From Candidatus Daviesbacteria bacterium (GTDB lineage: Bacteria > Patescibacteriota > Microgenomatia > Daviesbacterales > UBA10151), in the NCBI GenBank assembly GCA_016176405.1, contig JACOXG010000011.1:1-63277 (forward strand): a stretch of DNA of 63,277 nucleotides, given 5' to 3'. Position 1 is the first letter of the stretch; each line of letters starts with the position of its first letter. Positions 2,725 through 63,150 of the stretch are shown piece by piece. The translations under genes and the position numbers were made by a program. The notes beneath the pieces are model-generated. The model saw only the letters and a program-made list of their open reading frames with translations, ran no database searches and was not told where the DNA came from.

Positions 2725-2735
2725 GTTGTCTACTA

Positions 2736-3251: not shown

Positions 3252-3275
3252 CAAATTTCCTCCGGCCGTGGGAAA
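3251..3275 (+). repeat. direct repeat copy 2 (ACAAATTTCCTCCGGCCGTGGGAAA)
   Basis: Starts at the last base of the PaaX-like stop codon; 22/25 identical to 2700-2724. Confidence 0.7.
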
Positions 3276-3293
3276 AATGAAATTTTGAGATAA

Positions 3294-3728: not shown

Positions 3729-3824
3729 ATGTGTAGAATTATATACCTTTTAAATTTGAAAGTCAACTTATAGTAATAATTGTGTAGGATAGACAAAATA
3801 ATAGCAATTGAGTATAAATAGTGC

Positions 3825-6374
3825 ATGCAAAACCCACATAGATTACCTGCTCATGTTAGGCCTGAGAGATATAAAATTATGCTTAAGCCTGATTTGGAAA
3901 ATTTTATTTTTGAAGGTGAAGAGACTATTTACCTTGTGTTGGAAAAGCCCACTAAGCAAATTACCTTACATTCAGCTGATTTGGAAATAATTTCTGCAGA
4001 ATGGATCCATAAAACCAAAGAAGTTTGGGCAGGTAAGATCTCATATAACAAAGAGGGGGAGACTGCCACATTTACTTTCCCTAAAAATTTGGAGCCTGGA
4101 AAGGGTGAATTAAGGTTGAAGTTTAGGGGAATCTTAACTGATAAAATGAGGGGTTTTTATAGGAGTAAATATACTCATGAAGGAGTTGATAAACACTTAT
4201 CTGTTACCCAATTTGAAGCAACGGATGCTCGTCGTGCTTTTCCTTGTTTTGATGAGCCATCTCAAAAAGCTATTTTTGATGTAACTTTAATGATTCCTTC
4301 TCACACAGTGGCTATCTCAAATACCATTGAGTCCAGCATAAAAGAACATGAATCAGGTATAAAAATTGTGGAGTTTGAGCCTACTCCTACAATGAGTACT
4401 TATCTTTTGGCTTTTATTGTGGGGGAGTTTGAGTACATCGAAGGGAAAAGCGGAAAGGGGAAAGCGGTAAGGGTCTTCACTACGCCTGGCAAAAAAGAGC
4501 AAGGCAGTTTTGCTTTGGAGGTGGCCATAAAATGTTTGGACTTTTACGAAGAATACTTCGGAATAGACTATCCCTTGCCAGTTTTAGATTTAATTGCCAT
4601 TCCTGATTTTGCCTCAGGAGCCATGGAAAATTGGGGAGCAGTCACTTATAGGGAATCAACCCTGTTAATTGATGAAGAAAAATCATCTTTGGGTAATAAA
4701 CAATGGGTAGGGATGGTAATAGCACATGAATTAGCTCATCAGTGGTTTGGCAATTTAGTGACTATGGAGTGGTGGACACATCTTTGGTTAAATGAGGGAT
4801 TTGCTTCTTTTATAGAGTATTTAGCAATAGATCACATATTCCCAAGTTGGGATATTTGGACTCAATTTGTCTCATCTGAGATGGGCACAGCCTATTCTCT
4901 AGATGCTTTGAAAAATACCCATCCTATTGAGGTAGAGGTGGGGCATCCGGCAGAGATTTCTGAGATTTTTGATAAGGTTTCTTATTCAAAGGGAGCATCT
5001 ATTTTAAGAATGCTTCATGAATATTTAGGGCCAAAAGATTTTAGGGATGGATTAAGGCATTATTTAAAAAAACATTCCTATTCTAATGCTCAAACAGAGG
5101 ATTTATGGAAATCTTTAGAAGAAGTTTCAGGAAAACCAGTTTCTAAAGTGATGAGGAATTGGACCTCAAAACCTGGGCACCCAGTAATTATAGTAGTTGA
5201 TAGTGGGAAAGATTTAAAACTAACACAATCTAGATTTTTTTCCAGCCCAATTTCTAAAAAAGAAAGTAAAGATAAAACTGTCTGGAGTATTCCTATAAGT
5301 ACCAAGTACCAAAATTCAAGTACCAAACAAATTCTAATGGACCAAAAATCAATAGTAATTCCAGATAAAGGAGAAAAATTAAACTTAGGAGAAGCTTCTT
5401 TTGTTAGAGTTGATTATCCACATCAGTATTTAAAGAAGTTAGAAAAAGAGGTGAAAAGTGGAAAGTTGTCAGCTCCAGATAGGTTGGGGTTAATCAGGGA
5501 TAGTTTTAGTTTAGCTCAAGCAGGGGATTCTCCAACAACTTTAGCTTTGGAGTTAGCTCAAAGTTATGTTGATGAGGAAGATTACACTGTTTGGGCAGAG
5601 CTGACAGGCCAGCTAAGTCAGCTAGACAGCCTTCTTGCTTATGAGTCCTTTTATAACAATTATAAAATTTATAACAGATATATTTACCAAAGAATTGCTA
5701 AAAAAATGGCATGGAATAAAAAGCCTCATGAGAAGCATACAGATGCACTTTTAAGAGGAATGGTACTTTATAAATTGGGAAGCTATGGGGATAAAGAAAC
5801 AGTTGAAATGGCTCAGAAATTGTGGAAGAGCGGGGAAAAGGTGGATCCAGATTTGAAGGGAGTAGTTTATAACTTGGTGGCTGAAAATGGAGCAGAGAGT
5901 GAGTGGAGCAGTTTAGTTAAAATGTATAAAGAAGAAGATAATCAGCAGGAAAAAGACAGATTAGGTAGAGCATTAGGGCTTTTTAAGAATAAAACTCTTC
6001 TTAAAAAAACTTTGGAGTTTGCAATTTCTAAACATGTTAGATTTCAAAGTGCTTTGGGGATAATTTCTTCTGTTTGGGGAAATCCAAAGGGTAGATATTT
6101 AGCCTGGGAGTTTGTTAAAAAGAATTGGAAGTTACTTAAGGAAAGATATGCAGGAGGACATTATTTTACTAGAGTTTTTGGACCAGCCACAGAGTTTACC
6201 AAAGTTTCTGATGCTAGGGATATTGAGAGGTTTACCACCAAAAACCCAATTCCTGAGGCTAAAAGAACTATAGCTCAGGCTTTAGAGCAAATTTATTCAA
6301 ATAGTGAGTGGCTGAGGCGGGATAGAGCCGCGGTTAAAAAGTTTTTAGAAAAATTTGTGCCTGAAAGGATCTAA
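3825..6374 (+). CDS. pepN: M1-family aminopeptidase N with ERAP1-like C-terminal domain
   Basis: GAMEN exopeptidase motif and HELAHQWFGNLVTMEWW..WLNEGFA (HEXXH-18-E) zinc site. Confidence 0.93.
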   Translation: MQNPHRLPAHVRPERYKIMLKPDLENFIFEGEETIYLVLEKPTKQITLHSADLEIISAEWIHKTKEVWAGKISYNKEGETATFTFPKNLEPGKGELRLKFRGILTDKMRGFYRSKYTHEGVDKHLSVTQFEATDARRAFPCFDEPSQKAIFDVTLMIPSHTVAISNTIESSIKEHESGIKIVEFEPTPTMSTYLLAFIVGEFEYIEGKSGKGKAVRVFTTPGKKEQGSFALEVAIKCLDFYEEYFGIDYPLPVLDLIAIPDFASGAMENWGAVTYRESTLLIDEEKSSLGNKQWVGMVIAHELAHQWFGNLVTMEWWTHLWLNEGFASFIEYLAIDHIFPSWDIWTQFVSSEMGTAYSLDALKNTHPIEVEVGHPAEISEIFDKVSYSKGASILRMLHEYLGPKDFRDGLRHYLKKHSYSNAQTEDLWKSLEEVSGKPVSKVMRNWTSKPGHPVIIVVDSGKDLKLTQSRFFSSPISKKESKDKTVWSIPISTKYQNSSTKQILMDQKSIVIPDKGEKLNLGEASFVRVDYPHQYLKKLEKEVKSGKLSAPDRLGLIRDSFSLAQAGDSPTTLALELAQSYVDEEDYTVWAELTGQLSQLDSLLAYESFYNNYKIYNRYIYQRIAKKMAWNKKPHEKHTDALLRGMVLYKLGSYGDKETVEMAQKLWKSGEKVDPDLKGVVYNLVAENGAESEWSSLVKMYKEEDNQQEKDRLGRALGLFKNKTLLKKTLEFAISKHVRFQSALGIISSVWGNPKGRYLAWEFVKKNWKLLKERYAGGHYFTRVFGPATEFTKVSDARDIERFTTKNPIPEAKRTIAQALEQIYSNSEWLRRDRAAVKKFLEKFVPERI

Positions 6375-33648: not shown

Positions 33649-33684
33649 ATTTACACACCTGGTGTAATAGCTTTACACCTAAGG

Positions 33685-34044
33685 TCACTTGGTCAGTTTA
33701 CCAACATCTTTTAGCACTGATGATAAAACTGTTGAGACTACCGATAAAACTATGGCTCCAAGTATAGCTGGCATCAATCCATCAATCATCAGTCCTTGAG
33801 GAACTATTGCTGAAACTAATAATAAGACCACGGCATTGATGACAAAAGCAAAAAGACCCAAGGTGACGATTGAGATTGGTGCCGTGACAAAGCTTAAGAT
33901 AGGTTTAATGAAAGTATTGACTACCCCAAGCACAATTGCCACCAGAATTAAGGAGGCTGGATCCCCTACATTAAATCCGGGGACAACTTGAGCTGTTATC
34001 CAAAGAGCCACCGCATTTAAAAATAAAGCTACTAAAAGCTGCAT
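33685..34044 (-). CDS. phage-holin-4_2/YvlD-like membrane protein
   Basis: LNAVALWITAQVVPGF.. and four TM helices; recalled family pattern. Confidence 0.65.
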   Translation of the reverse strand: MQLLVALFLNAVALWITAQVVPGFNVGDPASLILVAIVLGVVNTFIKPILSFVTAPISIVTLGLFAFVINAVVLLLVSAIVPQGLMIDGLMPAILGAIVLSVVSTVLSSVLKDVGKLTK

Positions 34045-38470: not shown

Positions 38471-39025
38471 ATGGTTATCTTGTTTATTGTGGGTTTTATG
38501 CAGCTGAAACTTTTAGCAATAGGGATTATTTTAATGGGAATATTTTCCCGCCTTGTTCCCCATGCTCCCAATATTGCAGCCATCGGGGCTTTAATGCTTT
38601 TTGGAGGAGTATATTTGCCTAAAAAGATTTTCTGGCTGCCTATTTTGGCTTTATTTATTACTGATTTTTTTATTGGCTTTTATGGAACAGATATGATTTA
38701 TGTTTATGGAAGCTATCTACTTGTTGGTTTGATTGGGCTTTGGCTAAGAAAACATAAGAAACCTTTAATTGTTTTAGGTTCTGCTTTAACCTCCTCAGTA
38801 TTATTTTTCTTAATTACTAACTTTGGAGTTTGGGCCCCACCTAATAATTGGTATCCTCACACCCTGGATGGATTACTAACCAGCTACACCATGGCCCTAC
38901 CCTTTTTTAGAAATTCTTTAATAGGAGATTTGGGATATACTGTTTTACTCTTTGGCGGATATGAAATTATTCAATATCTTTCTAAGAAATATTTGCCCCG
39001 AAAACTTTTTCAACTGCTTTATTAA
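38471..39025 (+). CDS. integral membrane protein, unknown function
   Basis: Five or six TM helices; 3' end overlaps the convergent murD by 44 nt. Confidence 0.55.
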   Translation: MVILFIVGFMQLKLLAIGIILMGIFSRLVPHAPNIAAIGALMLFGGVYLPKKIFWLPILALFITDFFIGFYGTDMIYVYGSYLLVGLIGLWLRKHKKPLIVLGSALTSSVLFFLITNFGVWAPPNNWYPHTLDGLLTSYTMALPFFRNSLIGDLGYTVLLFGGYEIIQYLSKKYLPRKLFQLLY

Positions 39026-40415
39026 ATTTTCTGCCTCTATCAAATTCATTTTGGAATAAATTAAAAGAAGTAGCTGCTGGGGAAAAGAGAATGATATCCC
39101 CTTTTTTGACTATTTCTTTTACATCAATAAGTAATTTTTCTAAATCATCATAAGTCCCTGCTATTAAATCTTTGTTTTTCATTAATTTTTTAATTTGATC
39201 CGTAGAATCTCCTTCTAAAAAGAAAACTTTCTTGACAGAATTCCCTACGATCGTTGCATATTTTGTATAGTCCATTCCTTTGTTCATCCCTCCACAAATT
39301 AGGATACACCCTGGAAATGTTTTGATGGCTTGAATCCCCGCTTCAGGGGAAGTGGCAGTTGTATCATTGATAATTTTGACTCCATTCCAAACCTTGATAA
39401 GTTCCATCCGAAATGAGATACCTTTAAAATGTAATGTAACCTCCAAAATGGTTTCTTCATCCATCCCAAACGTCTTGGTTATAGCAAAAGCAGCTGCTAT
39501 GTTTTCTAAGTTATGTTCCCCCTTCAATCTTGGTTTAAAATCTTTAGGAAGGTCCTCTTTTGAAAAATAAATTATTTGAGCCTTTAATCCTTTTAGGAAG
39601 TTAGGTTTACTGGTTATTGGATCAAATTTTTTTAAAAATAAGTAATCAGACTTTGTTTGGTATTTTCCTATTATTATTTTTGACTGAATATATTCTTCCA
39701 TGGTTTGGTAATAATTAAGGTGGTCAGGTGTAATGTTGGTGATCACAGCCCACTTGGGAGAAACCTTATGTTGCTCGAAAGCTTCCAGCTGAAATGAGGA
39801 AATTTCTAAAACTACCAGAGTATCTGGTTTAACATGAGGTATGGTATCCAAAACACTTTTACCAATGTTTCCTGCTAAAATTATATTATTCCATGTATGT
39901 ATGCGTTGTACATGCCCGGCATGGGTTAGCTTGACATGCCAGGATTTTGCCAGATATTTGTTCAAAACATCATAAATCAAGGAAGCTATAGTGGATTTGC
40001 CTTTGGTGCCGGTGATTCCAATAATTTGAGAAGGTTTTACAAAATCTAGAAAAATTCCCATGTCTTGTTGTACCTTTTTGCCCTGTTTTCTAGCATATTC
40101 AATATGAACATTCCCAGGTTTTACAGCAGGATTTTTAATGATTAGATCAGCCCACTCTATATCCTCATTTTTATGTTCACCTAAAGTATAGGTAATATTG
40201 GGAAAGCTTTTTAATTGATCTAATGAGAGCTTAAGAATCTGTTTTGATTTTAAATCAGTTACTCTAACTGTTGCCCCCTGTTGGGCAAAAAATTTAGCAG
40301 ATCCCACTCCACCCTGATTTAACCCCAAGCCAAAGATAAGAACCCGCGTTCCACGGAACCTTGCCTTTTTGCTTCGCAAAAACGTAAGTACCTTCTTTCC
40401 TTTAAATTCATCCAT
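38982..40415 (-). CDS. murD: UDP-N-acetylmuramoylalanine--D-glutamate ligase
   Basis: GITGTKGKST P-loop; Mur ligase middle and C-terminal domains. Confidence 0.9.
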   Translation of the reverse strand: MDEFKGKKVLTFLRSKKARFRGTRVLIFGLGLNQGGVGSAKFFAQQGATVRVTDLKSKQILKLSLDQLKSFPNITYTLGEHKNEDIEWADLIIKNPAVKPGNVHIEYARKQGKKVQQDMGIFLDFVKPSQIIGITGTKGKSTIASLIYDVLNKYLAKSWHVKLTHAGHVQRIHTWNNIILAGNIGKSVLDTIPHVKPDTLVVLEISSFQLEAFEQHKVSPKWAVITNITPDHLNYYQTMEEYIQSKIIIGKYQTKSDYLFLKKFDPITSKPNFLKGLKAQIIYFSKEDLPKDFKPRLKGEHNLENIAAAFAITKTFGMDEETILEVTLHFKGISFRMELIKVWNGVKIINDTTATSPEAGIQAIKTFPGCILICGGMNKGMDYTKYATIVGNSVKKVFFLEGDSTDQIKKLMKNKDLIAGTYDDLEKLLIDVKEIVKKGDIILFSPAATSFNLFQNEFDRGRKFNKAVEKVFGANIS

Positions 40416-42682: not shown

Positions 42683-44859
<2,177 letters not shown>

Positions 44860-44870
44860 TTATTTTATCA

Positions 44871-45524
44871 TTATTTGGAGGGCATCACCAGCATTAAATA
44901 TTCCAAAATGGCCCGGATATTGACATTTTGATTGGCCCATTCTTCAGCCTGCAGTAATTCTTTTATAAAATCTGTGCTCCCACTTTGAATGTGGGAAGCT
45001 AGATTTTTATGAAAATAATTTACTAAGGCATATAAAAATTCTTCTCTATCCTTTAGTTTTTCAATGTATTCAAATCTTTCTTCTATGCTTATTCTTAAAA
45101 GTCTTTCAATATCAGCTATATAGATACCAACCCCCGGTGTTGGATAGCTTGAAACCTCGGGTATATGGATAACCTGGCAGCGTGAGATGATAGTGGGTAA
45201 CAACTTTGACTCATTATCCACCCCCAAAATAAAAAGCCCCTCCTTCGGTAGTTCCTCAAGGGTTTTTAACAGGGCATTTTGGGCCTCAATTGTCAAATTA
45301 GAAGCATCTTCCAAAACGACTGCTCTGCCTTTGGCAGAATATGGTTTTAGGGAAAAATGTTCTTTAATTTTTCTGGCCTCAGCAATTCCTAATTTAGAAT
45401 CAGCATTAAAATATAAAACATCCGGATGATTTGTATTCCCACTTCCCAAGTGGGAACGTAGAGTTTGATCAATTTCTTTTTTGATATCTTCTAAAGATGG
45501 TGAAATCAAAAGTTTGGCTATCAT
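44871..45524 (-). CDS. holB: DNA polymerase III delta-prime-like subunit (short form)
   Basis: EAQNALLKTLEELP and SRCQVIHI motifs. 217 aa. Contains three repeat-derived segments. Confidence 0.78.
   Translation of the reverse strand: MIAKLLISPSLEDIKKEIDQTLRSHLGSGNTNHPDVLYFNADSKLGIAEARKIKEHFSLKPYSAKGRAVVLEDASNLTIEAQNALLKTLEELPKEGLFILGVDNESKLLPTIISRCQVIHIPEVSSYPTPGVGIYIADIERLLRISIEERFEYIEKLKDREEFLYALVNYFHKNLASHIQSGSTDFIKELLQAEEWANQNVNIRAILEYLMLVMPSK
45126..45163 (+). repeat. REP copy (ACCAACCCCCGGTGTTGGATAGCTTGAAACCTCGGGTA) inside holB
   Basis: Same element as at 52932, 53684 (inverted) and 62874; translated as IPEVSSYPTPGVGI. Confidence 0.8.
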
Positions 45525-45528
45525 AATA

Positions 45529-45587
45529 GAGATCCTTCACTAATCGCTCAGGTCTTCGACCCTGAGGCTCAGACCCGAAGGGATGAC
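45529..45587 (-). repeat. reverse-orientation copy of the GTCATCC..GGATC family with an internal 28-nt insert
   Basis: GAGATCCTTCACTAATCGCTCAGG + TCTTCGACCCTGAGGCTCAGACCCGAAG + GGATGAC. Confidence 0.7.
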
Positions 45588-45628
45588 ACTTCGTGTCAGT
45601 TTTAACTTTTTAGCATTGACATGTCAAG

Positions 45629-47410
45629 ATGGATCTGGACATAATAGATCTAGACCCAAAAAATAATTTGGGTTTTAAGCTTATGGCAAATCAGGCTGCC
45701 CAAACTACTCAGACCAATAGAGACCAAATAGAAGATATTTTATTTAAGCAAGGACTGTTAACCTCTGATCAGCTGTCTGCAATTAAATTAGAAAGTATCA
45801 ATTCTGGCCAACCGATTGATAAAATCTTGGTTCAGCACAATTTAGTGCCCCTAGATAAGTTAACTCAGGCCAAGGCCCAGCTTCTTAATGTCCCCTTTAT
45901 CAAGCTGGAGGGTAAGGCCATCTCGGCAGATATTTTAAATCTGATTCCTGAACCTGCTGCCAGACGTTATCAGATCATTCCCTTTGACAGACGAGAAGAT
46001 GAGCTCATGGTAGCCATGGTAGATCCTTTGGATATTCAAATCATCCAATTTATTGAAAAAAGGTCAGGTTTTAGAGTTAAGCCCTTTTTGGCTTTAGGGG
46101 ATGATATTTTAAAAGCTATCAGGGATCAATATGCCCAAAATTTAACTAGTGAGGTGACCTCAGCCTTAAGGGAAGTAGAAGAGGTTAAGCCAGAAGAAGT
46201 TCAAGAACAAGGGCCAGAAATGATCAGGGAGGCACCTGTCTCCAATATCATCAACCAACTCTTGGAATATGCTGTTAAAACTCGGGCCTCTGATATTCAT
46301 ATTGAACCGCAAGATGATCGGACCAGAGTCAGATATAGAATTGATGGAATTTTACAGGAGAAGATCTTACTGCCAAAAGGGGTGCATGAGGCCTTGATTT
46401 CTAGAGTGAAAATTTTGGCAGTCTTAAAAATTGATGAAAAAAGACTGCCCCAGGATGGTAGATTCACCTTTAATTATGGATCAAATGAGGTGGATTTGAG
46501 AATTTCCACTGTCCCCACAGTTTTTGGAGAAAAAGTGGTGATGAGACTTTTACCTAAATCATCTGCCGCTCCCTCTCTTTTCGAATTAGGTCTAAGAGGT
46601 ACCTCTTTGAGAAATCTGGAGGCTCAGCTGCTTCGGACTCATGGTATCATCTTAATTTGTGGCCCCACCGGTTCTGGTAAAACTACCACGCTGTATTCGA
46701 TACTCACCAAAGTTTCCACCACCAAGGTGAACGTGGTTACTATTGAAGATCCGGTCGAGTATCAAATTCCTGGTGTTAATCAGGTTCAGGTTAATCCTCA
46801 AGTAGGTTTAACCTTTGCCTCAGCCTTAAGGAGTTTCCTTCGGCAAGATCCTAATATAATAATGGTAGGAGAGATTAGAGATACGGAAACCGCGGATTTG
46901 GCCATTCAGGCGGCTTTGACTGGTCACCAAGTTTTCTCCACTGTCCATACCAATTCTGCTGCCGGTGCTCCACCCAGGTTGTTGGACATGGGAGTTGAAC
47001 CATTTCTTCTTACCTCTTCCCTTTATGCCGCAGTCGGCCAAAGGGTGGTCAGAAAAATTTGCCCAAAATGTAGAGTGGAATTTGTAGCTATTCCAGAGGT
47101 GGTGGAAAATATCAAAACGGTTTTAGGCAAACTGTTGCCGCAATCTGCAGTCAATGGTAGTTTAAAACTTTTTAAAGGAAAGGGCTGTAACTTTTGTGCA
47201 ACCACTGGTTATTTGGGTAGAATTGGTATTTTTGAATCACTGATTGTGACAGATGCCATTGCCAAGTTGATTTTAGAGCATGCTTCTTCCTCAATCATTG
47301 AGAAAGAAGCCATCGCCTCCGGCATGATTACCATGAAACAGGATGGATATTTAAAGGTGCTGGAGGGCATAACAACTTTGGAGGAGGTACTTAGAGTTGC
47401 ACAAGATTAA
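45629..47410 (+). CDS. pilB: type IV pilus assembly ATPase PilB (GspE family)
   Basis: N-terminal GspE_N-type domain, Walker A GPTGSGKTTT, Asp/His boxes, C-terminal CPKC..CNFC zinc cluster. An alternative ATG lies at 45683. Confidence 0.93.
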   Translation: MDLDIIDLDPKNNLGFKLMANQAAQTTQTNRDQIEDILFKQGLLTSDQLSAIKLESINSGQPIDKILVQHNLVPLDKLTQAKAQLLNVPFIKLEGKAISADILNLIPEPAARRYQIIPFDRREDELMVAMVDPLDIQIIQFIEKRSGFRVKPFLALGDDILKAIRDQYAQNLTSEVTSALREVEEVKPEEVQEQGPEMIREAPVSNIINQLLEYAVKTRASDIHIEPQDDRTRVRYRIDGILQEKILLPKGVHEALISRVKILAVLKIDEKRLPQDGRFTFNYGSNEVDLRISTVPTVFGEKVVMRLLPKSSAAPSLFELGLRGTSLRNLEAQLLRTHGIILICGPTGSGKTTTLYSILTKVSTTKVNVVTIEDPVEYQIPGVNQVQVNPQVGLTFASALRSFLRQDPNIIMVGEIRDTETADLAIQAALTGHQVFSTVHTNSAAGAPPRLLDMGVEPFLLTSSLYAAVGQRVVRKICPKCRVEFVAIPEVVENIKTVLGKLLPQSAVNGSLKLFKGKGCNFCATTGYLGRIGIFESLIVTDAIAKLILEHASSSIIEKEAIASGMITMKQDGYLKVLEGITTLEEVLRVAQD

Positions 47411-47415
47411 GTGAG

Positions 47416-47482
47416 AAAATTCCAAATCACAAATTCCAAATAACAAACTATTTGTAATTTGGTGCTTGGAATTTGGAATTTT
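47416..47482. repeat. long imperfect hairpin spacer built from CAAATNN / NNATTTG heptamers
   Basis: Arms 47416-47447 and 47451-47482 pair at 26 of 32 positions by hand alignment. Confidence 0.75.
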
Positions 47483-47486
47483 ATTT

Positions 47487-48539
47487 ATGAACATTAACCA
47501 GCTCTTAGACTTAACTATCTTAAGAAAAGCCTCAGATTTACATCTGTCTGTTGGTTTTCCTCCCACACTCAGGATTAACGGAGAACTGATCCCCATCCCT
47601 GGTGAAGAGGTCATGACCGAGTCCCAGATTGAAAGTTTGGTCACGCCCTTGTTGTCTGAGATCCAAAAAAATATCTTTGCTCAGACTTTTGAATTAGACT
47701 TTTCCTTTGAATTTGAAAATAAGGGTAGGTTTAGAGTCAATATTTATAAACAAAGAGGTAATATAGCAGCTGCCTTAAGATTAATCCCTTTCCGTATTCC
47801 CCTTTTGGAAGAAACTGGCTTGCCTCAAGTAGTTTCCAAACTGACCGAGCTTAGACAGGGTTTTATTTTGGTGACAGGGCCGACCGGCCATGGTAAAACC
47901 ACCACCCAGGCAGCCTTTATCAACAAAATTAACCATGATCGAGCTGTTCATGTGATTACAGTAGAAGATCCGATTGAGTACGTTTATCCAAAGGGCAAAT
48001 CTTTGATTGATCAGCGGGAGATGTATCGAGACACCAAATCCTGGTCCAATGCCCTGAGGGCTATACTTAGGGAAGACCCAGATGTGGTGTTGATCGGAGA
48101 AATGAGGGATTTGGAAACAATTGCCTCGGCCATGACCATTGCTGAAACTGGACATTTGGTGTTTGGTACCTTGCATACCAACTCAGCTGCTCAATCAGTG
48201 GATAGAATTATCGATGTCTTTCCTGAGATTCAACAGCCGCAAATTAAGTTACAGCTAGCTGCTACCTTAGAAGCCATTATTTCTTTAAGACTAATTCCCA
48301 CCATCGAACCTGGTCGAACTTTGGCAGCAGAGATTCTGTTTGCCACTCCGGCTGTCCGCAACATCATCAGAGAAGGTAAATCATACCTGATAGATAATAT
48401 TATTGAAACTTCAGCTGAGTTGGGCATGCAAAGTATCGAGCGCTCCCTGGCAGAGCTGGTTAAAAAAGGCAAGATCTCTCAAGATGTGGCCTTAAGGTAT
48501 GCTCTACGCCCGGAACTACTCAATAAGCTTATTAAATAA
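47487..48539 (+). CDS. pilT: twitching-motility retraction ATPase PilT
   Basis: ASDLHLSVG, Walker A GPTGHGKTTT, GHLVFGTLHTNSA. Confidence 0.95.
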   Translation: MNINQLLDLTILRKASDLHLSVGFPPTLRINGELIPIPGEEVMTESQIESLVTPLLSEIQKNIFAQTFELDFSFEFENKGRFRVNIYKQRGNIAAALRLIPFRIPLLEETGLPQVVSKLTELRQGFILVTGPTGHGKTTTQAAFINKINHDRAVHVITVEDPIEYVYPKGKSLIDQREMYRDTKSWSNALRAILREDPDVVLIGEMRDLETIASAMTIAETGHLVFGTLHTNSAAQSVDRIIDVFPEIQQPQIKLQLAATLEAIISLRLIPTIEPGRTLAAEILFATPAVRNIIREGKSYLIDNIIETSAELGMQSIERSLAELVKKGKISQDVALRYALRPELLNKLIK

Positions 48540-48540
48540 T

Positions 48541-48629
48541 GATCAAATCACAAGCACCAAATGACAAATAAATCTCAAATCACAAGCACCAAATTCCAAA
48601 CGTTTGTAATTTGTAATTTGTAATTTTTT
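48541..48629. repeat. heptamer-word spacer ending in (TTTGTAA)x3
   Basis: caaatca caagcac caaatga caaataa .. caaattc caaacg tttgtaa tttgtaa tttgtaa. Confidence 0.75.
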
Positions 48630-48638
48630 ATCCAACCT

Positions 48639-49841
48639 ATGGCTGAATTCATCTATAGAGCTAAAGACCTGAATGGCAAAGAATATAGCGGCGACGTTCA
48701 GTCTGCCGATATTCGCACTGCAGTGGGGATTTTAAGAAAAAGAGGCTTGGTGGTGATTACGGTCAAGCCAAAATTTAAATCAGCCGCTCCCTTTTTGGAG
48801 GCTTTTTTAAACCGGGTCAGTTTTTCCGAATTGGTAGTCACCACCAGGCAGCTGGCCACCATGGTAGGTAGCGGTTTGGTGCTGTCTGAGGCTATTGATA
48901 TTTTAGAAGAACAACAGACCAATAAAACTTTTAAAAAGGCTCTGGGAGAAATATCATCAGATGTCAAAGGTGGTTTAACTTTGGCTCAGGCTTTAAGTCG
49001 GCATCCCAAAATTTTCCCTCGACTTTATGTCAATCTGGTCAGAAGCGGAGAAACTTCCGGAAAATTGGATGAGGTACTTCTTCGAATGGCCACTGGATTG
49101 GAGAAGGAAAGAGAATTTCAAGCCAGGGTCAGAGGAGCTATGATCTATCCGGCGGTGGTGTTAACTATGATGGGGGTAGTAATTATCATCATGATGGTCT
49201 TTGTCATCCCCAAATTGGTCACCCTATATGATCAGTCAACTTTGGAACTTCCTTGGCCAACCAAGATTTTAATTGCTTCCTCAAATCTTTTTATCAATTT
49301 CTGGTGGGCTTTTATTATCTTAGTAGTGGCGGCTATTTTTGGCCTAAAAAGGTGGAACAAAACTCCTGAAGGCCATCTATTTTTAAGCAACCTAATACTT
49401 AAGCTGCCGATTGTTGGTAAAATTGTCTCAAATGTTACTTTGACTAACTTTAACCGCACCTTTGGGCTACTCACCTCAGCTGGTATTCCCCTTTTGGACT
49501 CAATCTCAATTGTGGAAGATATGACAGAGAATGCTGCTTTTAAAAAGGTGTTAAAAGAAGCGCATGGGGGAGTAGAAAAGGGGTTGCCACTTTCCTCGCT
49601 TTTGACTAGTACCATTTTCCCCCGGATTGTGGGGCAGATGGTTAAGGTAGGTGAAGAAACAGGCAAGATTGATGAAATATTTTTGAAACTGGCAGACTAT
49701 TTTGAGTCAGAGTCTGATCATTTAATTAAAAATCTGACAGTGGCTATTGAGCCAATTATCTTGATTATTTTGGGAATTGGAGTAGGATTTTTGGTTATAT
49801 CCATTATTTTGCCGATCTACCAATTAACCACCAGCTTTTAA
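48639..49841 (+). CDS. pilC: type IV pilus platform protein PilC (GspF family)
   Basis: Two T2SSF repeats, three TM segments, 400 aa. Confidence 0.93.
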   Translation: MAEFIYRAKDLNGKEYSGDVQSADIRTAVGILRKRGLVVITVKPKFKSAAPFLEAFLNRVSFSELVVTTRQLATMVGSGLVLSEAIDILEEQQTNKTFKKALGEISSDVKGGLTLAQALSRHPKIFPRLYVNLVRSGETSGKLDEVLLRMATGLEKEREFQARVRGAMIYPAVVLTMMGVVIIIMMVFVIPKLVTLYDQSTLELPWPTKILIASSNLFINFWWAFIILVVAAIFGLKRWNKTPEGHLFLSNLILKLPIVGKIVSNVTLTNFNRTFGLLTSAGIPLLDSISIVEDMTENAAFKKVLKEAHGGVEKGLPLSSLLTSTIFPRIVGQMVKVGEETGKIDEIFLKLADYFESESDHLIKNLTVAIEPIILIILGIGVGFLVISIILPIYQLTTSF

Positions 49842-49911
49842 ATGACCCCTTGACGAAAGAGTAGAGGTTATGAATACAATAAAATATAGAGTGAAGGGGG
49901 GTGAGTAGTTT

Positions 49912-50481
49912 TTGAGAAAATCTGCCCAGGTTCTAACTAGAGGGTTTACCCTAGTGGAACTTTTGGTTGTTATTGCTATTATTGCCATTTTGGCGGCAGT
50001 GGTGGTACTGATTGTTAATCCCTTAGAGGTAACTAGAAGGGCTCGTGATGCCACCAGATTTGCTGATGTGACTAATGTTCAACAAGCCATCAATGTGACT
50101 GTTCAAGAAGCAACTGGATCAGGAGCTGAAGTGCTTTGTGCTGGAGGATCTGCTCCCTGTGTAGGTAGAAGTACAGATAGTGGTTCCCAATCATCAGCTG
50201 GTACTGGATGGGTTAAAGTTGATTTGACTGTGCAAAATGCAGTGGCTGTACCAAACTTGCCAAATGATCCGCAAAATACATCCGGTGCAACCGGCATGCA
50301 CTATACTTATTGTTCTGACGGTAATGCTTGGGAAATCAATACCAGGCTAGAGTCAACCCGATATACAGTGGATGAAGATCGTGATGGTGGAGATGGTGGG
50401 GATGATCCTGATATATACGAGACTGGTTCTGACCCAGGTTTGAATTTGATCTCACCATCAGGTGGTTCATGTACTTATTAA
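49912..50481 (+). CDS. type IV pilin (class III signal peptide)
   Basis: RGFTLVELLVVIAIIAILAA prepilin cleavage/methylation motif; TTG start 6 nt after GGGGGGTGAG. Confidence 0.85.
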   Translation: MRKSAQVLTRGFTLVELLVVIAIIAILAAVVVLIVNPLEVTRRARDATRFADVTNVQQAINVTVQEATGSGAEVLCAGGSAPCVGRSTDSGSQSSAGTGWVKVDLTVQNAVAVPNLPNDPQNTSGATGMHYTYCSDGNAWEINTRLESTRYTVDEDRDGGDGGDDPDIYETGSDPGLNLISPSGGSCTY

Positions 50482-51380
50482 GTTTAGTTGCTTCTGGCTT
50501 TATTTTAGGGACGATTTTAGGTAGTTTAACCAAAGCCCTAGCTGACAGAAGTTTAACTAATGGTAAGTTTTTGGGAAGGTCGTACTGCCCGCATTGCAAA
50601 AAAGTCTTGCGATGGTACGACCTTCTTCCTATTGTCTCCTACCTACTTCTAAAAGGAAAATGTCATTATTGCCACAAAAATATTGGCAAAGAATATTTAA
50701 TGGTGGAGTTAGTGATGGGGCTTTTGATAGCCTATTTATTCTATCAGAACTTCTCATACTTTAACTTTCCCCTTTCTCCTTTACCCTTTACCCTTTTTTT
50801 CTTAGATCTTATTTATAAAATCTTCTTTATCACGGTTTTAGCCATTCTATTTATAACAGATCTTAAGAAGATGTTAATTCCGGATCGGATAGTTATTCCA
50901 GCAATCATCATCAGCTCTATCTATCTAATTATGACCACCATTCTAAAAATTGGCTTCCTATATTATTCCCTCTCCCAAACTCAAATAGGCAGATACTTAC
51001 TTCCTCCTCACAGTGAATTTTTTCAAAGGCATGCCTTAATTGCGGCTGAGGGAGCAATAGGAGCATTTTTAGTGGCGCTTACAATTGGAGGACTCTTTTT
51101 ATTTTTGGCAAAAATTACTGGAGGTCGAGGTATGGGAGGTGGAGATGTCAAGTTAGGATTTTTAATGGGATTAGGCTTAGGTTTCCCCAATGCTTTGGTG
51201 GCCTTAATGGGAGGATTTTTATCAGGGGCAGTGGTAGCCATCATCTTAATTATTTTAGGTAAAAAACATTTTGGCCAGTCTATCCCCTTTGGACCATTTT
51301 TGGTGTTAGGTAGTTTAGTGGCTCTTTTTTGGGGTAATCAAATAATGGGGTGGTATCTGAGATTATCATTCTCAGGCTAA
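50469..51380 (+). CDS. pilD: prepilin peptidase/N-methyltransferase PilD (A24 family)
   Basis: CPHCKKVL..CHYCHK zinc motif and GGGDVKL catalytic Asp motif. Confidence 0.92.
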   Translation: MYLLSLVASGFILGTILGSLTKALADRSLTNGKFLGRSYCPHCKKVLRWYDLLPIVSYLLLKGKCHYCHKNIGKEYLMVELVMGLLIAYLFYQNFSYFNFPLSPLPFTLFFLDLIYKIFFITVLAILFITDLKKMLIPDRIVIPAIIISSIYLIMTTILKIGFLYYSLSQTQIGRYLLPPHSEFFQRHALIAAEGAIGAFLVALTIGGLFLFLAKITGGRGMGGGDVKLGFLMGLGLGFPNALVALMGGFLSGAVVAIILIILGKKHFGQSIPFGPFLVLGSLVALFWGNQIMGWYLRLSFSG

Positions 51381-51436
51381 ATTGGGGTCTTGACAAGATG
51401 TTAATTCATATGCAAATAATGGAATAGAACTAAAAA

Positions 51437-51877
51437 ATGAAAAAGTATCTGCCCAAAACTTCTGGTTTCACCTTAGTTGAACTTTTGGTAGTTGTGGCCA
51501 TTATTGCCATTTTAGCAATAATTGGTATTGCTATTTTCTCCGGTCTTCAACCAAGGGCTAGAGATGCCACCAGAAAATCAGATCTAGAAGCTATTTCTAA
51601 GGCTATGGAAACTCAGTATGTAGAAAGTACTGCTCAATATGCTGCCTTGGCTGCGACCTTCTTTGCAGGTGGAACAATTCCCACAGATCCACTAAACGGA
51701 ACAACTACCTGTCAATCAAATACTTGTAAATACTGTGTGAGAACAAGCAATGGCAATTGTACAACTACAGACACTACTGTAGCAGCTGGGCAACCTCCTG
51801 CAGGTACCAGCTATAGAGTTTGTACTAATTTAGAACAAGGTACACCCACTTTTCTTTGTTACGCCAGTCAACGCTAA
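51437..51877 (+). CDS. type IV pilin
   Basis: SGFTLVELLVVVAIIAILA motif; Cys-containing C-terminal region. Confidence 0.88.
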   Translation: MKKYLPKTSGFTLVELLVVVAIIAILAIIGIAIFSGLQPRARDATRKSDLEAISKAMETQYVESTAQYAALAATFFAGGTIPTDPLNGTTTCQSNTCKYCVRTSNGNCTTTDTTVAAGQPPAGTSYRVCTNLEQGTPTFLCYASQR

Positions 51878-51885
51878 CTTACTAC

Positions 51886-51915
51886 TTGCATTTTAAAAAA
51901 ATTTATTGGAATAAT
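51886..51915 (+). promoter_or_regulatory. candidate promoter TTGCAT-18-AATAAT
   Basis: -10-like box ends 8 nt before ATG 51924; no Shine-Dalgarno. Confidence 0.35.
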
Positions 51916-51923
51916 AAATTAAC

Positions 51924-52841
51924 ATGCCCAACAAAAAAGGTTTTACCCTGGTTGAACTGCTGGTAGTTATAGCTATCCTGGCCATCCTGGCTATTATTGG
52001 CATAGTGATTTTCACCGGGCTGACCAAAAATGCTAATGAAAGTAGAAAAAAATCCGATGTGGAAACCATAGCCAAAGTTTTGGAAGCACAGTATAGTCCA
52101 ATAGCTGGTTACCCTAATCCTCTGGCAGGCACTTTCTTTGCTTCAGGAATAGTACCAACACCTCCTGAGGGAGGTACCTACAATGTTGTATATAGTACTG
52201 GTAATGTTGGTTTTAGAGTTTGTGCAGATTCTGCTGATACTGATCCCCTTACAACCTGTAGTGCGTCTTCTAGTACTTGTTTCTGTAAAGATTCCAGCCA
52301 ATCACAATACGTAGCCGCTGGTGGTCCCCCACCAGGAGGTGGTGGAAATCCCAAACGGGTCTTTGTGACCAGTACCACATCTAATGGTAATTTAGGTGGA
52401 TTAGCTGGAGCTGATACTACCTGTAACACACGCGCCAGTTCAGAAGGATTAGGAGGTACTTGGGTGGCTTGGCTGTCCACTACTACAGTTGCTGCCAGTT
52501 CAAGGGTGAATCAAACAGGTGCTCCTTATGAGTTAGTCAATGGTACAGATATTGCCGATGATTGGACAGATTTAACCACTCTTCATGATGGAACTAATTA
52601 CCTAAAAGCTGCAATTAATATTAATGAAAGTGGAACAACAGTAACAGCTAATGTCTGGACCAATACAACTGTAACTGGAGGTATACCCGCCACATCAGCT
52701 GATTGTAGTGGTTGGACCTCGCCAGATTCTGCTGTTACTGGAAAAGGTGGCACTACCACAAGTACCACTGCTACCTGGACTGCTGCTGGTAGTACTCCAA
52801 CCTGTAATAATTCTTATCGTTTATATTGTTTTGAGCAATAA
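51924..52841 (+). CDS. type IV pilin fused to a C-terminal endostatin/DUF1554-like domain
   Basis: KGFTLVELLVVIAILAILA, then a Gly/Pro linker, then KRVFVTSTTSNGNLGGLAGADTTCNTRA..GGTWVAWLS..YRLYCFEQ. Confidence 0.85.
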   Translation: MPNKKGFTLVELLVVIAILAILAIIGIVIFTGLTKNANESRKKSDVETIAKVLEAQYSPIAGYPNPLAGTFFASGIVPTPPEGGTYNVVYSTGNVGFRVCADSADTDPLTTCSASSSTCFCKDSSQSQYVAAGGPPPGGGGNPKRVFVTSTTSNGNLGGLAGADTTCNTRASSEGLGGTWVAWLSTTTVAASSRVNQTGAPYELVNGTDIADDWTDLTTLHDGTNYLKAAININESGTTVTANVWTNTTVTGGIPATSADCSGWTSPDSAVTGKGGTTTSTTATWTAAGSTPTCNNSYRLYCFEQ

Positions 52842-52931
52842 TTTAAATTTACCTAGTACCACTACGCCCTTTATCAAATTTATCAAACAGGTATGCCCCT
52901 CGCTACTAGTCGCACTACTAATTACGTGTTA

Positions 52932-53727
52932 CCAACCCCCGGTGTCAACACCCGGGGTTTAATAGCTTGAAACCTAAGGATATTTTGTGGTAATGTAGCC
53001 TTATGCCATACCGTAAGACTCCCCTATCCCAAGGAGAGATTTATCACATCTTCAATCGCAGTGTTGCCAGACAACCCATCTTTTTAGGAAATAGAGATTA
53101 TCAAAGAGCTTTGGAGACGATCAGATTTTATCTCTTTTCCGGAGCTCATTTAAGTTTCTCCCATTATGACAGGTTACCTCTGCAACAACGCTCTGATTTT
53201 ATGAAAAAACTGGAAGAGTCAAATGAAAGGCAGATAGAAATCTTTGCTTACTGTCTCATGCCAAATCACCTCCATTTCTTAATGAAGTGCCTAAGGGATA
53301 AAGGTATTAGCAATTTCATGAATTGGTTGCAAAATAGCTACGCCAAATACTTCAATATTAAAACGGAGAGAAGTGGGGCTTTATTCCAATCAATGTTTAA
53401 GGCAGTCAGAATTGAATCAGATGAACAATTCATCCATGTGGGGCGTTATATCCATCTTAATCCCTTAACTGCCTATATTATAAAAAACTCAGCCCAACTA
53501 GAGAACTATCCATGGTCTTCCTTTGCAGAGTATCTGGATAATCAGGATCCCAAAATTATCAGCAGAGAGCTCATGTTAGGTCACTTCTCTTCCGTAGAAG
53601 CCTTTAAAAGATTCACTTTTGATCAAATAGATTATCAAAGAAAATTAGCCGAAATTAAACACTTACTAAATGAGTAAACTTTGGATTTTCCTTAGGTTTC
53701 TATTCAACCAACCCCCGGTGTTGGTTT
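52932..53727 (+). mobile_element. RAYT (REP-associated Y1 transposase) unit with flanking inverted REPs
   Basis: Left REP 52932-52980 and inverted right REP 53684-53727 bracket the IS200-like gene. Confidence 0.75.
53003..53677 (+). CDS. IS200-like/REP-associated tyrosine transposase (RAYT)
   Basis: HIFNRSVARQPIF, HUH motif in CLMPNHLHFLM, catalytic Tyr region GRYIHLNPL. Confidence 0.88.
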   Translation: MPYRKTPLSQGEIYHIFNRSVARQPIFLGNRDYQRALETIRFYLFSGAHLSFSHYDRLPLQQRSDFMKKLEESNERQIEIFAYCLMPNHLHFLMKCLRDKGISNFMNWLQNSYAKYFNIKTERSGALFQSMFKAVRIESDEQFIHVGRYIHLNPLTAYIIKNSAQLENYPWSSFAEYLDNQDPKIISRELMLGHFSSVEAFKRFTFDQIDYQRKLAEIKHLLNE

Positions 53728-53732
53728 TCTCG

Positions 53733-53761
53733 TTGACGAGGCATTAATGGTAGTGAATAAT
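53733..53761 (+). promoter_or_regulatory. candidate promoter TTGACG-17-AATAAT
   Basis: -10-like box ends 7 nt before ATG 53769. Confidence 0.4.
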
Positions 53762-53768
53762 AAAGATA

Positions 53769-54284
53769 ATGCCTAGAAGTAAGCCAAAAGTTTCTGGTTT
53801 TACCCTTATAGAGCTTCTGGTAGTAATCACCATTATAGCTGTTTTGGCTGCTATTGGACTTTTAAGCTATTCCAAATTTATTGAAACTTCTAGAAATGCC
53901 AAAAGACAATCTGACCTAAAATTAATTCAATCAGCCCTAGAACAATATCATGCTGACCAAAAATTCTATCCAAATGAGGGATTAAATTTAGGGAGTGGTA
54001 CAACTCTAACAAACTGTACTGGTAACGCTACAGGTTGTTCTGTTAGTAAAACCTATTTAAATTCCATACCCAAAGATCCTAAAGCCAGTCCTGCTTATTG
54101 CTATAGATCAATGATTAGTTCTTCTCGGACAGGTGATAATTGTAGTAGTGGTTGGTATGATGATTCAGGTCATGAAAAATGTCAGTATTACCGCATATGT
54201 GCAACTTTAGAAAATCCCAGCTCTTCTACATCCTGTGATTGTGGGGGTGGTAAAACTGGTAACTTTGAAGTAAATCCCCCATAA
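53769..54284 (+). CDS. type IV pilin
   Basis: SGFTLIELLVVITIIAVLAA motif; Cys-rich C-terminus. Confidence 0.88.
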   Translation: MPRSKPKVSGFTLIELLVVITIIAVLAAIGLLSYSKFIETSRNAKRQSDLKLIQSALEQYHADQKFYPNEGLNLGSGTTLTNCTGNATGCSVSKTYLNSIPKDPKASPAYCYRSMISSSRTGDNCSSGWYDDSGHEKCQYYRICATLENPSSSTSCDCGGGKTGNFEVNPP

Positions 54285-54322
54285 AGCTTTAGATTTTCCC
54301 CAATTTATGTTACTTTTAAATC

Positions 54323-54865
54323 ATGCCCACTTCATCTACCAACTCCTCAGGTTTCACATTGCTTGAGCTTTTAATTGTTTTGGTAATTTTAGCAATTTTA
54401 GCAGTAACTGCCGGAATCAATTTTAGGACCCTTTCGGAGGATCAAGTTTTAAAAAAAGCCACCTCTGATATTCAATCCTTTTTAAGGCTGGCCCAATCTA
54501 ATTCCACTGCAGGAGTTAAATGTCCTGGTACATCTACAGCGGGTAGCTGGTCAGTGGTATTCAATGGCAGTGATAAAAAAAAATTAGAGATGAATTGCAG
54601 TTATGTTTCTGGAGATAGTGGTATTTTGATTGCTAATGCAAAACCACCCCTGGTATTAGAAAATGCAGAGGTTTCATCAATTACTGGTAGCAGTTGTACT
54701 GCTGGCCCACCCTTTACAGTTTACTATGCCACTCTTTATGGCACTGTGACATTTAATTCTGATACTAATTGTTCAAAGGCGACTGTTACAGTCAAAAGAG
54801 TCAATTCTACCAGCACCAAAGACTTTTATATTACCAAAGGAGGATCCATAGATGCAGCGCCGTGA
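54323..54865 (+). CDS. minor pilin / pseudopilin
   Basis: SGFTLLELLIVLVILAILA motif. Confidence 0.85.
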   Translation: MPTSSTNSSGFTLLELLIVLVILAILAVTAGINFRTLSEDQVLKKATSDIQSFLRLAQSNSTAGVKCPGTSTAGSWSVVFNGSDKKKLEMNCSYVSGDSGILIANAKPPLVLENAEVSSITGSSCTAGPPFTVYYATLYGTVTFNSDTNCSKATVTVKRVNSTSTKDFYITKGGSIDAAP

Positions 54866-62873: not shown

Positions 62874-62909
62874 AAACACCGGGTGTTGGTTAGCTTGAAA
62901 CCTCGGGAT
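62874..62909 (+). repeat. REP copy overlapping the 3' end of the KH-domain gene
   Basis: AAACACCGGGTGTTGGTTAGCTTGAAACCTCGGGAT. The reverse strand reads ..NPEVSS-stop. Confidence 0.8.
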
Positions 62910-63150
62910 TTTGTCCACCTGGTTCAGCAAGTTGCAAATTCACTCTAACGTTTTCAGCTATAGCTCTGACAGTTAAAAGCTTTCTAATTGCCCTAATTGT
63001 CTGGCCATTTTTACCAATAATTAGTCCCATATCAGATGGATCAACAGTTAAATTAAGATCTACATTACCCTCCTGATTGTTTTCTTCAATTTTAACAGCA
63101 TCCGGTTTGGTCACCAAACTGGTGACAATAAAATTAAGCAGGTCTTTCAT
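62890..63150 (-). CDS. KH-domain RNA-binding protein (YlqC/UPF0109-like)
   Basis: MKDLLNFIVTSLV..GLIIGKNGQTIRAIRKLL (GxxG KH motif). ATG 63150 preceded by AGGAG. The upstream ORF extension lies in heptamer-repeat DNA. Confidence 0.85.
   Translation of the reverse strand: MKDLLNFIVTSLVTKPDAVKIEENNQEGNVDLNLTVDPSDMGLIIGKNGQTIRAIRKLLTVRAIAENVRVNLQLAEPGGQNPEVSS

Follow-up and report, generated by a model that had tools for sequence, protein, structure and literature searches.

A low-copy RAYT-like Y1 transposase cassette and its hairpin repeat units in the genome of a Daviesbacteria bacterium

The RAYT/REP systems, in which a REP-associated tyrosine transposase (RAYT) accompanies repetitive extragenic palindromes (REPs), are the best-known case of a (semi-)domesticated transposase with its own population of short DNA repeats, and work on them has, to our knowledge, been nearly confined to Proteobacteria, Cyanobacteria, and Bacteroidetes. 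A contig of 63,277 nucleotides from a Candidatus Daviesbacteria bacterium (JACOXG010000011.1 in assembly GCA_016176405.1; the whole stretch is referred to here as the window) carries a gene for a Y1-type HUH nuclease/transposase between two inverted hairpin repeats, within an array of pilin-like genes. This raises the question of whether a system of this type is present in the ultra-small genomes of the candidate phyla radiation (CPR) and how closely it follows the known ones, an earlier note on the same DNA having described the locus as the classical RAYT/REP arrangement. Our analysis leads instead to a low-copy, TIRYT-like RAYT/REP system that is new for CPR bacteria and is non-classical. 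We consider it likely that a single-copy RAYT-like Y1 enzyme, encoded in a cassette of ~800 bp, copies or moves a few repeat units of its own by cutting and rejoining DNA adjacent to a hairpin. The system is distinctive in its three- or four-arm unit, in the predicted promoter inside the unit, and in the in-frame residence of units in essential genes at recurrent sites (Table 1).

Table 1. Positions of the Y1 gene, its predicted promoter, and the repeat units in the window
Feature	Position	Strand	Description
RAYT-like HUH/Y1 single-strand DNA nuclease/transposase ORF	53003..53677	+	224 aa; Pfam and fold match; NCBIfam REP model below its cutoff
Upstream unit B	52931..52988	+	palindrome ACCAACCCCCGGTGT/CAACACCCGGGGTT enlarged, 52931-52959; linker TAATAGCTTGA; third arm AAACCTAAGGA; then ATATTTTG
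Predicted Y1-gene promoter within unit B	52967..52996	+	-35 TTGAAA 52967-52972; 18-nt spacer; TGg-TAATGT 52991-52996
Downstream unit C	53689..53726	- (inverted)	palindrome AACCAACACCGGGGGTTGGTT 53706-53726; linker GAATAGA; third arm AACCTAAGGA
Solo unit A	45126..45163	+	arm type CAACC; inside holB-like gene 44871-45524 (minus strand)
Solo unit D	62875..62913	+	arm type AACAC/CAACC; between trmD start codon (62871) and KH-domain gene
Solo unit E	33651..33685	+	arms ACACC; linker TAGCTTTA; third arm CACCTAAGG (ACACC)
Solo unit F	39891..39944	+	54-nt four-arm element; arms and third arm CATGCC; in frame in murD (38982-40415, minus strand)

The Y1 enzyme and its cassette

The open reading frame (ORF) between the flanking repeats carries the motifs MPNHLHF, which contains the HUH residues H89-L90-H91, and GRYIHLNP, which contains the catalytic tyrosine Y149, bearing out the earlier report of a 224-aa ORF with NHLHF and YIHLNP. 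It matches the Pfam family Y1_Tnp (PF01797; E value of 5e-11 and 43.2 bits, against a gathering cutoff of 23), the only Pfam match at E <= 0.1; no helix-turn-helix (HTH)- or DnaA_C-like domain was found at that threshold in the C-terminal tail, which forms a helical extension from about residue 175. The NCBIfam model REP_Tyr_transpos (NF047646) scored 57 bits against a curated cutoff of 80, and the IS200 model (NF033573) only 15.4 bits against a cutoff of 55. Four weak hits were returned by a sequence search of the PDB, the best of which (E value of 0.16), and the sole transposase among them, was Escherichia coli TnpAREP (4ER8). An AlphaFold2 model built from 22 homologues (mean pLDDT of 86.5) likewise had 4ER8 as its best Foldseek match (E value of 4e-7; TM score of 0.69 on the target), followed by the ISDra2, IS608, and IS200 transposases, and the top 29 hits were all Y1 transposases; the fold hits in the IS200/IS605 family include 2XMA, 2A6M, and 2VJU. 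Across the 22 homologues (57 to 68% identity), H89, H91, Y149, and ~40 further positions are invariant, and the tyrosine motif is the Y..NP of class 2 rather than the Y...Q of class 1 (PMC6006769). Because the REP model far outscores the IS200 model, the tyrosine motif is Y..NP, and 4ER8 is the best fold match, we place the protein on the RAYT side; judged from its sequence, the ORF is predicted to encode a class-2 Y1 HUH enzyme nearer to RAYT/TnpAREP than to IS200. Clustering with ordinary IS200 elements, which the earlier note had set against its own proposal, is thus not what we find.

A tblastn search of the window with the protein gave one hit, and the exact protein occurs on four contigs with identical neighbours on all of them, which indicates a single genomic context. 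A protein search returned 1304 relatives at E <= 1e-5; the best 120 of these 1304 are 56 to 68% identical to the query and 220 to 254 aa long (nearly all 220 to 241 aa), and the named members among them belong to Candidatus Daviesbacteria or Gottesmanbacteria. At least 549 confirmed relatives came from a scan of JGI metagenomes, from which 80 loci were kept (L130-L209). One tblastn hit per locus was found in 89 of 90 loci, with L169 alone having two genes, and no truncated copies of the gene were seen among the loci looked at. The Y1 clade is large and widespread in Microgenomates-type CPR bacteria (Daviesbacteria and Gottesmanbacteria). That the genome looked CPR-like to the earlier note agrees with the named homologues of the Y1 protein and of its neighbours, which come from Candidatus Daviesbacteria, Gottesmanbacteria, and Microgenomates.

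The cassette is common to ~80 homologues of 45 to 68% identity, from Daviesbacteria, Gottesmanbacteria, and metagenome contigs. An upstream palindrome with a (T)AGCTTGAC-type tail precedes the gene, and an inverted palindrome with a TAGGTAGAC-type tail lies just past its stop codon; the same layout was found in the relatives L004, L006, and L007 and in most of the 80 metagenome loci.

Repeat units and the sites they occupy

We derived a consensus for the repeat unit from an alignment of four copies in the window (A, B, C, and D). Its parts, in order, are a palindrome rich in GC, for which the consensus is CCAACACCCGGTGTTGG, a single base, the linker TAGCTTGA, and a third arm, AACCTNGGG, often followed by ATTTTG. 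The third arm is a direct copy of the left arm of the palindrome, hence complementary to the right arm, and the unit can form two mutually exclusive hairpins; in the best single-stranded DNA (ssDNA) folds of units E and F, arm 2 pairs with arm 3, with the linker as the loop, instead of the central palindrome forming. The GT[AG]G tag is absent from the units, and the conserved part is the linker, which on the other strand reads TCAAGCTA, 5' of the hairpin; a loose (G/T)TA(C/G/A), read by eye, stands in front of many palindromes. An Rfam search recovered no such element, its sole match being one tRNA.

The inverted copies that the earlier note had placed on either side of the gene were found at 52931-52980 and 53689-53726, and its statements on their sequences hold to within 1 to 2 nt. 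They were also recovered by a repeat search as 35-nt inverted arms (52946-52980 and 53689-53723) that are 77% complementary. The 15-mer ACCAACCCCCGGTGT, reported by that search at 52931 and 53707, has five matches at three or fewer mismatches (three of them exact) against 0.66 expected, a count that 0 of 100 shuffles reached, and the 13-mer TAGCTTGAAACCT has three exact occurrences in the window. The layout of unit B recurs upstream of homologue genes, and unit C on the plus strand appears as a terminator-like hairpin followed by TTTTCTCGTT. Altogether the window holds six units of three arm types, each type self-consistent, and one Y1 gene. Two further copies had been noted previously at 45126-45163 and 62874-62909; both are present (at 45126-45163 and 62875-62913), the former inside coding sequence rather than intergenic, and units E (33651-33685) and F (39891-39944) are additions to that list. 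Hairpins of this kind, whose absence from the rest of the genome the earlier note had named as an objection, are thus not restricted to the flanks of the gene; within the window, units A, D, E, and F lie elsewhere.

The palindromes vary by genome and include CACACC-N-GGTGTG, CACCCC-N-GGGGTG, CAAGCC-A-GGCTTG, CAAACC-N-GGTTTG, CCATGCC-GGGCATGG, CACCT-TAGA-GGTG, ATAACGAT..ATCGTTAT, CAACC, ACGAT, and other types. A MAFFT alignment of 58 units left the palindrome loops out of register, and a permutation test was used instead of a covariance model. In that test, which ignores sequence kinship, the third arm tracks the palindrome arm, with a mean best match of 4.66/6 against 4.33 +/- 0.06 when permuted, and 0 of 5000 permutations reached the observed value. 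The signal is carried by minority arm types, as ACACC dominates. The clearest single case is L169, where one paralogue is accompanied by ACGAT-type units and the other by CCACCT-type units. The two genes of this locus (3649-5716) are adjacent, divergent Y1 paralogues, 44% and 49% identical to the query, and the two repeat types are interleaved around both of them to give a small "REPtron" cluster.

The upstream unit probably contributes to the promoter of the gene. The sequence TTGA[CA] lies 33 to 42 nt ahead of the ATG in 53 of 68 distinct upstream regions, with a mode of 35-36; the spacer to a -10-like hexamer is 17 nt in 41 of these 53, and in 39 the hexamer ends 6 to 7 nt ahead of the ATG. 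In the short stretch that precedes the start codon, the upstream regions read show no evident Shine-Dalgarno-like sequence. The linker TTGA(C/A)A is probably, on the strength of this recurrent spacing, the -35 box of the Y1-gene promoter, and because the -10 element ends so close to the start codon and no Shine-Dalgarno-like sequence is seen, the mRNA is probably leaderless. In the window the -10-like element ends 6 nt ahead of the ATG; it is weak (3/6) and absent from the list produced by a consensus promoter scan. Downstream units have TAGA[CA] in 37 of 74 cases and TTGA[CA] in 6 of 74.

Of the window's four solo units, three (A, D, and F) overlap coding sequence. Unit A lies in a gene for a DNA polymerase III delta'-like protein (Pfam DNA_pol3_delta2), whose minus-strand reading frame runs through it as PEVSS-Y-PTPGVG, immediately past the SRC motif, and unit F is read in murD as ..SWHVKLTHAGHVQRIHTW.., between the P-loop and GNIG. 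Unit D provides a stop codon: the KH protein ends in five residues and a stop that are encoded by the tail of the unit (CCC GAG GTT TCA AGC TAA, or PEVSS*). The remaining one, unit E, fills a 36-nt spacer between convergent genes for a xerC-like recombinase and a membrane protein of the holin family; the hairpin in the orthologous spacer of L213 is unrelated. The arm type of unit F differs from the type flanking the Y1 gene. We considered whether units E and F are decayed copies of the cognate type and rejected this for both, as the third arm of each matches its own arms and so marks another arm type. In all three coding-overlapping units of the window, and in seven checked in relatives, the palindrome-to-tail direction is antisense to the host gene. 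Read in the sense direction, the linker TAGCTTGA has stop codons in two of its three frames, so that the bias may stem from survival of the reading frame, from a strand preference of insertion, or from both.

The same sites are variously empty and occupied in relatives. Among 119 MurD homologues, the segment between the P-loop and GNIG spans 28 to 34 residues in 92, which are empty, and 37 to 83 residues in 27, which have an insert and include that of the window. The site in L215 is empty at the DNA level, ..AAA AAT AAA being joined directly to AAA AAT GCC.., and that in L213 holds a 54-nt element at the same position and on the same scaffold as in the window (TCCT..GTCAA(C/G)CTA..ACAACGCA..TGG), with arms CCACCCC as against CATGCC. 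In L212, which is among the closest relatives, a double-tailed unit with CAACCCC arms lies a few codons off. No target duplication is evident at the murD sites compared, and the target is A-rich. Compared as sequences, these empty and occupied orthologous MurD sites argue for mobility. In the holB gene of L129, a unit whose arms are CCCATRCC occupies the codon position of unit A and shares its frame, and unit-derived peptides such as IPDVSIQHTPGVG or PGMSTYHIPGMG were found in 11 of 87 parsed homologues. At the KH/trmD junction of L007, PDVST* is encoded by a double-tailed unit whose arms are CACACC.

We also note other small repeats in these genes. A second unit-like element is present in murD of L213 (~11047) and another in the alanine racemase gene (alr) of L212 (~7591), each with arms unlike those of the murD unit on the same contig. 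Past the SRC motif, the holB linker contains internal peptide repeats in many homologues (RITNN..RITNN, RVQG..RVQG, VHS..VHS, TTNY..TTNY); at the DNA level, holB has direct repeats GTAGTTGGTAGTTGG around a hairpin in L128 (10001-10675), three tandem copies of GGGGACA, which fits the TIRYT-associated motif GGGGWSAS, in L215 (1127-1753), and an AT-richer palindrome in L213 (3054-3734). It seems that the holB linker is a hot spot for small repeats in general, and not only for the unit described here.

Copy numbers appear to be small. Generic three-arm scanners were unspecific (reversed controls gave 14 hits against 14 in the real sequence, and 14 against 11), and their hits were retained only when the linker motif was also present. 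A scan of the relatives' loci gave 41 hits against 23 in the reversed control; counting by eye from this list only GC-rich palindromes with a recognisable linker, we arrive at ~15 convincing extra units in ~540 kb, several of which are inverted, double-tailed doublets resembling overlapping REPINs or "double foot" REPs (PMC6006769). Among all contigs of two runs, the sequences at least 85% like unit D were units D and A and two or three further ones of differing depth, and a whole metagenome run held 4 to 5 contigs with a sequence that similar. The cognate family is perhaps a handful of units per genome. A scan of genome contigs with TAGCTTGAAACCTNNGG (15 specified bases) gave, among the matches listed, chance single hits in unrelated phyla, none with a palindrome.

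Known systems and competing explanations

The best match in both sequence and fold is E. coli TnpAREP (RayT/YafM), which together with REPs and bacterial interspersed mosaic elements (BIMEs) makes up the "REPtron" (PMC3479197, PMC2817692). Both systems have the HUH/Y1 fold with the class-2 Y..NP motif and a single-copy gene between inverted hairpin repeats that are also found elsewhere, and in both the repeat varies with the gene variant. However, the proteins are 16% identical, and that of the window is longer (224 aa versus 165 aa) and has a different C-terminal extension; its units have no GT[AG]G but instead the conserved 8-nt linker TAGCTTGA and a third arm, and they exist in a handful of copies, many inside genes, rather than in hundreds. 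Classical REPs are extragenic and number ~100 or more per genome, whereas we count six units in 63 kb and coding overlap in three of four solo copies. Of the classical arrangement proposed in the earlier note, what stands is a RAYT-side Y1 enzyme with inverted hairpin repeats that also occur elsewhere; the word "classical" does not, given a REP-model score below the cutoff of 80, the missing GT[AG]G, the linker and third arm, the low copy number, the location of most solo copies in coding sequence, and motifs that appear to match a subclass reported without REPs (PMC6006769). The attribution of such systems mainly to Proteobacteria is also dated, RAYT-like classes being present in Cyanobacteria, Bacteroidetes, and other phyla (PMC6006769). 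Quentin et al. (PMC6006769) do not mention CPR, Patescibacteria, or Microgenomates, and a full-text literature search found no paper that joins any of these with RAYT, TnpAREP, or REP.

The subclass in question is TnpAY1 subclass 2.1, which is equivalent to Group 1 of Bertels et al. (PMC5581495) and to most TIRYTs of Di Nocera et al. (PMC3733652). Its motif set comprises the HUH motif NH[VYF]H, FQ, Y[IV]HLNP, and an SS tail (PMC6006769 Table 1). The protein of the window, with NHLH, LFQ, YIHLNP, PWSS, and a length of 224 aa against a median of 238, appears to fit this subclass by motifs and length, an assignment made from motifs read by eye and not from a tree, and the leucine in its HUH motif is absent from the listed variants. 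Members of subclass 2.1 have a C-terminal HTH-like domain (Bac_DnaA_C, HTH_23/28), and the terminal inverted repeats (TIRs) of the subclass and of TIRYTs share GGGGWSAS. The resemblance extends to flanking inverted repeats in at most small families and to low copy number, but subclass 2.1 has been described without REP-like hairpins (PMC6006769), whereas clear hairpin units are present at the ends of our cassette, and GGGGWSAS is absent from units B and C. In a tblastn search against plasmids of cultured bacteria, the best "transposase" matches were 23 to 33% identical, too distant for subclass placement. The TnpA proteins of IS200/IS605 elements (IS608, ISDra2) have the same catalytic fold and presumably the same chemistry, with recognition of an ssDNA hairpin and cleavage at an offset from it. 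They differ in having Y...Q instead of Y..NP, ends formed by two different subterminal hairpins on the same strand instead of inverted copies of one unit, and typically several near-identical copies instead of a single gene, and there is no tnpB in our cassette.

Short palindromic repeats inserted in frame in protein-coding genes, at permissive loops, are familiar from the Rickettsia palindromic elements. Intragenic REPs are likewise known, many of them in genes for replication and repair (Di Nocera et al., PMC3733652), and REPs also occur inside tnpAREP genes (PMC6006769). The units in holB, murD, and alr (L212) resemble these in being short palindromic repeats in frame at permissive loops, but differ in that their sites recur across genomes with different arms and that one unit supplies a stop codon. 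The holB and murD cases extend the known intragenic-REP phenomenon and do not constitute a new one.

By homology with E. coli TnpAREP and with the TnpA of IS608 and ISDra2, we hypothesize that the enzyme binds the hairpin formed by a unit on ssDNA and that Y149 cuts and rejoins beside it, the conserved linker and third arm setting the position; short units would thereby be copied or moved. The arms would need only to be self-consistent, with the linker as the sequence-specific part, and the very short intergenic space would confine units to permissive protein linkers (holB, murD), gene ends (KH/trmD), and convergent spacers, which may explain their distribution. A more tentative possibility, to which we give some credence while thinking it doubtful, is that the units are four-arm, two-hairpin elements, in the order arm(-), linker, arm(+)/arm(-) as the central palindrome, linker, and arm(+), with fixed linkers and arms that are rewritten together, and that the Y1 enzyme acts again and again on units already resident at fixed sites, replacing or converting them in a homing-like "peel and paste." We raise it because the holB linker, the murD segment, and the KH stop codon keep their scaffold with different self-consistent arms; if true, reuse of sites would mean that units survive as gene ends and as in-frame parts of essential proteins.

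Several observations weigh against an enzyme that moves units of its own. Besides the REP-model score that falls short of its cutoff, the copy number is far below that of classical REPs, and two of the four solo units, E and F, have arms unlike those flanking the resident gene, so that either the enzyme accepts any self-consistent arms or these units belong to another, unseen or lost enzyme. The covariation of arms comes from a test blind to kinship. Folding of the units as ssDNA gave z scores of +0.3 to -2.35 relative to shuffles (the lowest being the minimum-free-energy fold of unit E, arm 2 with arm 3), and because these energies are not clearly better than those of shuffles, support for the structure of the unit is comparative, not thermodynamic. 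Finally, over 44000-54500, the contigs of four groundwater runs contained no form without a unit or the cassette, contigs being blind to rare variants.

These points bear on what else the locus might be. The whole cassette could be an autonomous insertion sequence with TIRs (a "TIRtron"), of which the solo units are derivatives resembling miniature inverted-repeat transposable elements (MITEs), or footprints. This would suit ends that are inverted repeats ~38-58 nt long, a neighbourhood that is different in every relative examined, the inverted termini and MITE-like look of unit F, and motifs that appear to fit subclass 2.1/Group 1, one of the two most insertion sequence-like RAYT groups (PMC5581495). 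Nevertheless, we think it unlikely, as no duplicate copies were found (the exact protein and each homologue looked up occur in one context, and all but one of the 90 loci gave a single hit), no truncated ones were seen, and the gene is highly conserved, with no loss of the promoter geometry; the genomes compared are moreover so distant (57 to 68% identity) that rare moves or transfers suffice for the differing positions. Domestication of the enzyme for a host function, or its inactivity on the units, would leave these as fixed structural or regulatory elements of DNA or RNA, such as promoters, terminators, and mRNA hairpins. The probable double role of the upstream unit as a promoter, the terminator-like downstream unit, the recurrence of units in distant genomes at shared positions in the holB linker, at the KH/trmD junction, and in murD, the low copy number, and a source population without visible polymorphism are all in keeping with this, but insertion into coding sequence with mostly empty orthologous sites is hard to explain without movement, and a change of arm type at one site with the scaffold kept fits replacement better than slow drift; we regard this explanation as rather improbable. 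The view that the repeats are chance similarity or low complexity beside an ordinary IS200-type gene draws on the shortness of the units and on generic three-arm scans that are as rich in reversed sequence. It is refuted by exact 13- and 15-mers far above expectation, by a layout found in ~80 independent loci, and by an IS200 score of 15 bits against a cutoff of 55.

If the enzyme does act on its own units, as we think likely, the logic of RAYT/REP is now seen in a large, well-conserved clade of ultra-small CPR genomes, in a form that differs from others in combining a fixed linker with free, self-consistent arms, an upstream repeat that is probably also the promoter, and few copies that are mostly tolerated in essential genes. 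It offers a compact natural system for asking whether such an enzyme recognises structure or sequence, how repeats survive with almost no intergenic DNA, and whether insertion sites are reused. For annotation, the units account for unusual, hypervariable peptide insertions in the proteins that these bacteria encode by holB, murD, and the KH gene.

The pilin array and its surroundings

Around the Y1 gene are ORFs for type IV pilin-like proteins (N_methyl) and for a prepilin peptidase, and the gene lies between the third and fourth of the pilin-like ORFs, where the earlier note had seen the array split. Its proposed comparison of the pilus locus among relatives shows pilin arrays without the cassette in L007 and in L128 (GCA_964649615.1), a syntenic relative. 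Elsewhere the cassette is found next to ileS/ftsZ (L004), tyrS (L006), and trmD (L007), the last of these at the distal end of the pilus operon. Because these neighbourhoods differ and the arrays of L007 and L128 lack the cassette, the interruption is lineage-specific; no link to pilus function is evident, which suggests that it is incidental. In L128, an AbiEii toxin gene with a small upstream ORF lies between two pilin genes (2679-3609). This interruption is an AbiEii toxin-antitoxin pair in place of the Y1 cassette, and the stretch seems tolerant of insertions.

The promoter-like sequence TTGACG-17-AATAAT that had been pointed out downstream of the cassette is present at 53733-53761, just before the next pilin gene, and scores 10/12 against the consensus, but such sites are no more frequent in this region than in shuffles. 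Directly upstream of the cassette (51924-52841) is a 305-aa pilin-like protein with a long C-terminal part rich in Cys, Thr, and Gly, for which precomputed Pfam hits to Endostatin and DUF1554 are weak.

Two further differences between the window and related sequences lie outside the cassette. The one clean contig joint, after 44274, does not involve a repeat unit; the 57 nt concerned are ordinary gyrB coding sequence. These 57 nt, which encode TPDFDRLERQLKQVAYLVA, are present in Logan contigs of the same population (L210, L211) and missing at 44274/44275 in the window (gyrB 42955-44853, minus strand), an in-frame deletion of 19 aa that is either genuine or an error of assembly. The intergenic stretch at 47410-47500, which separates the genes for the pilB-like and pilT-like ATPases, is highly variable among related organisms in the samples: many contigs (from four runs) match up to 47449 or from 47481, and beyond these points continue into unlike, AT-rich, repeat-like sequence, TTTGGAATTTGGAATT.

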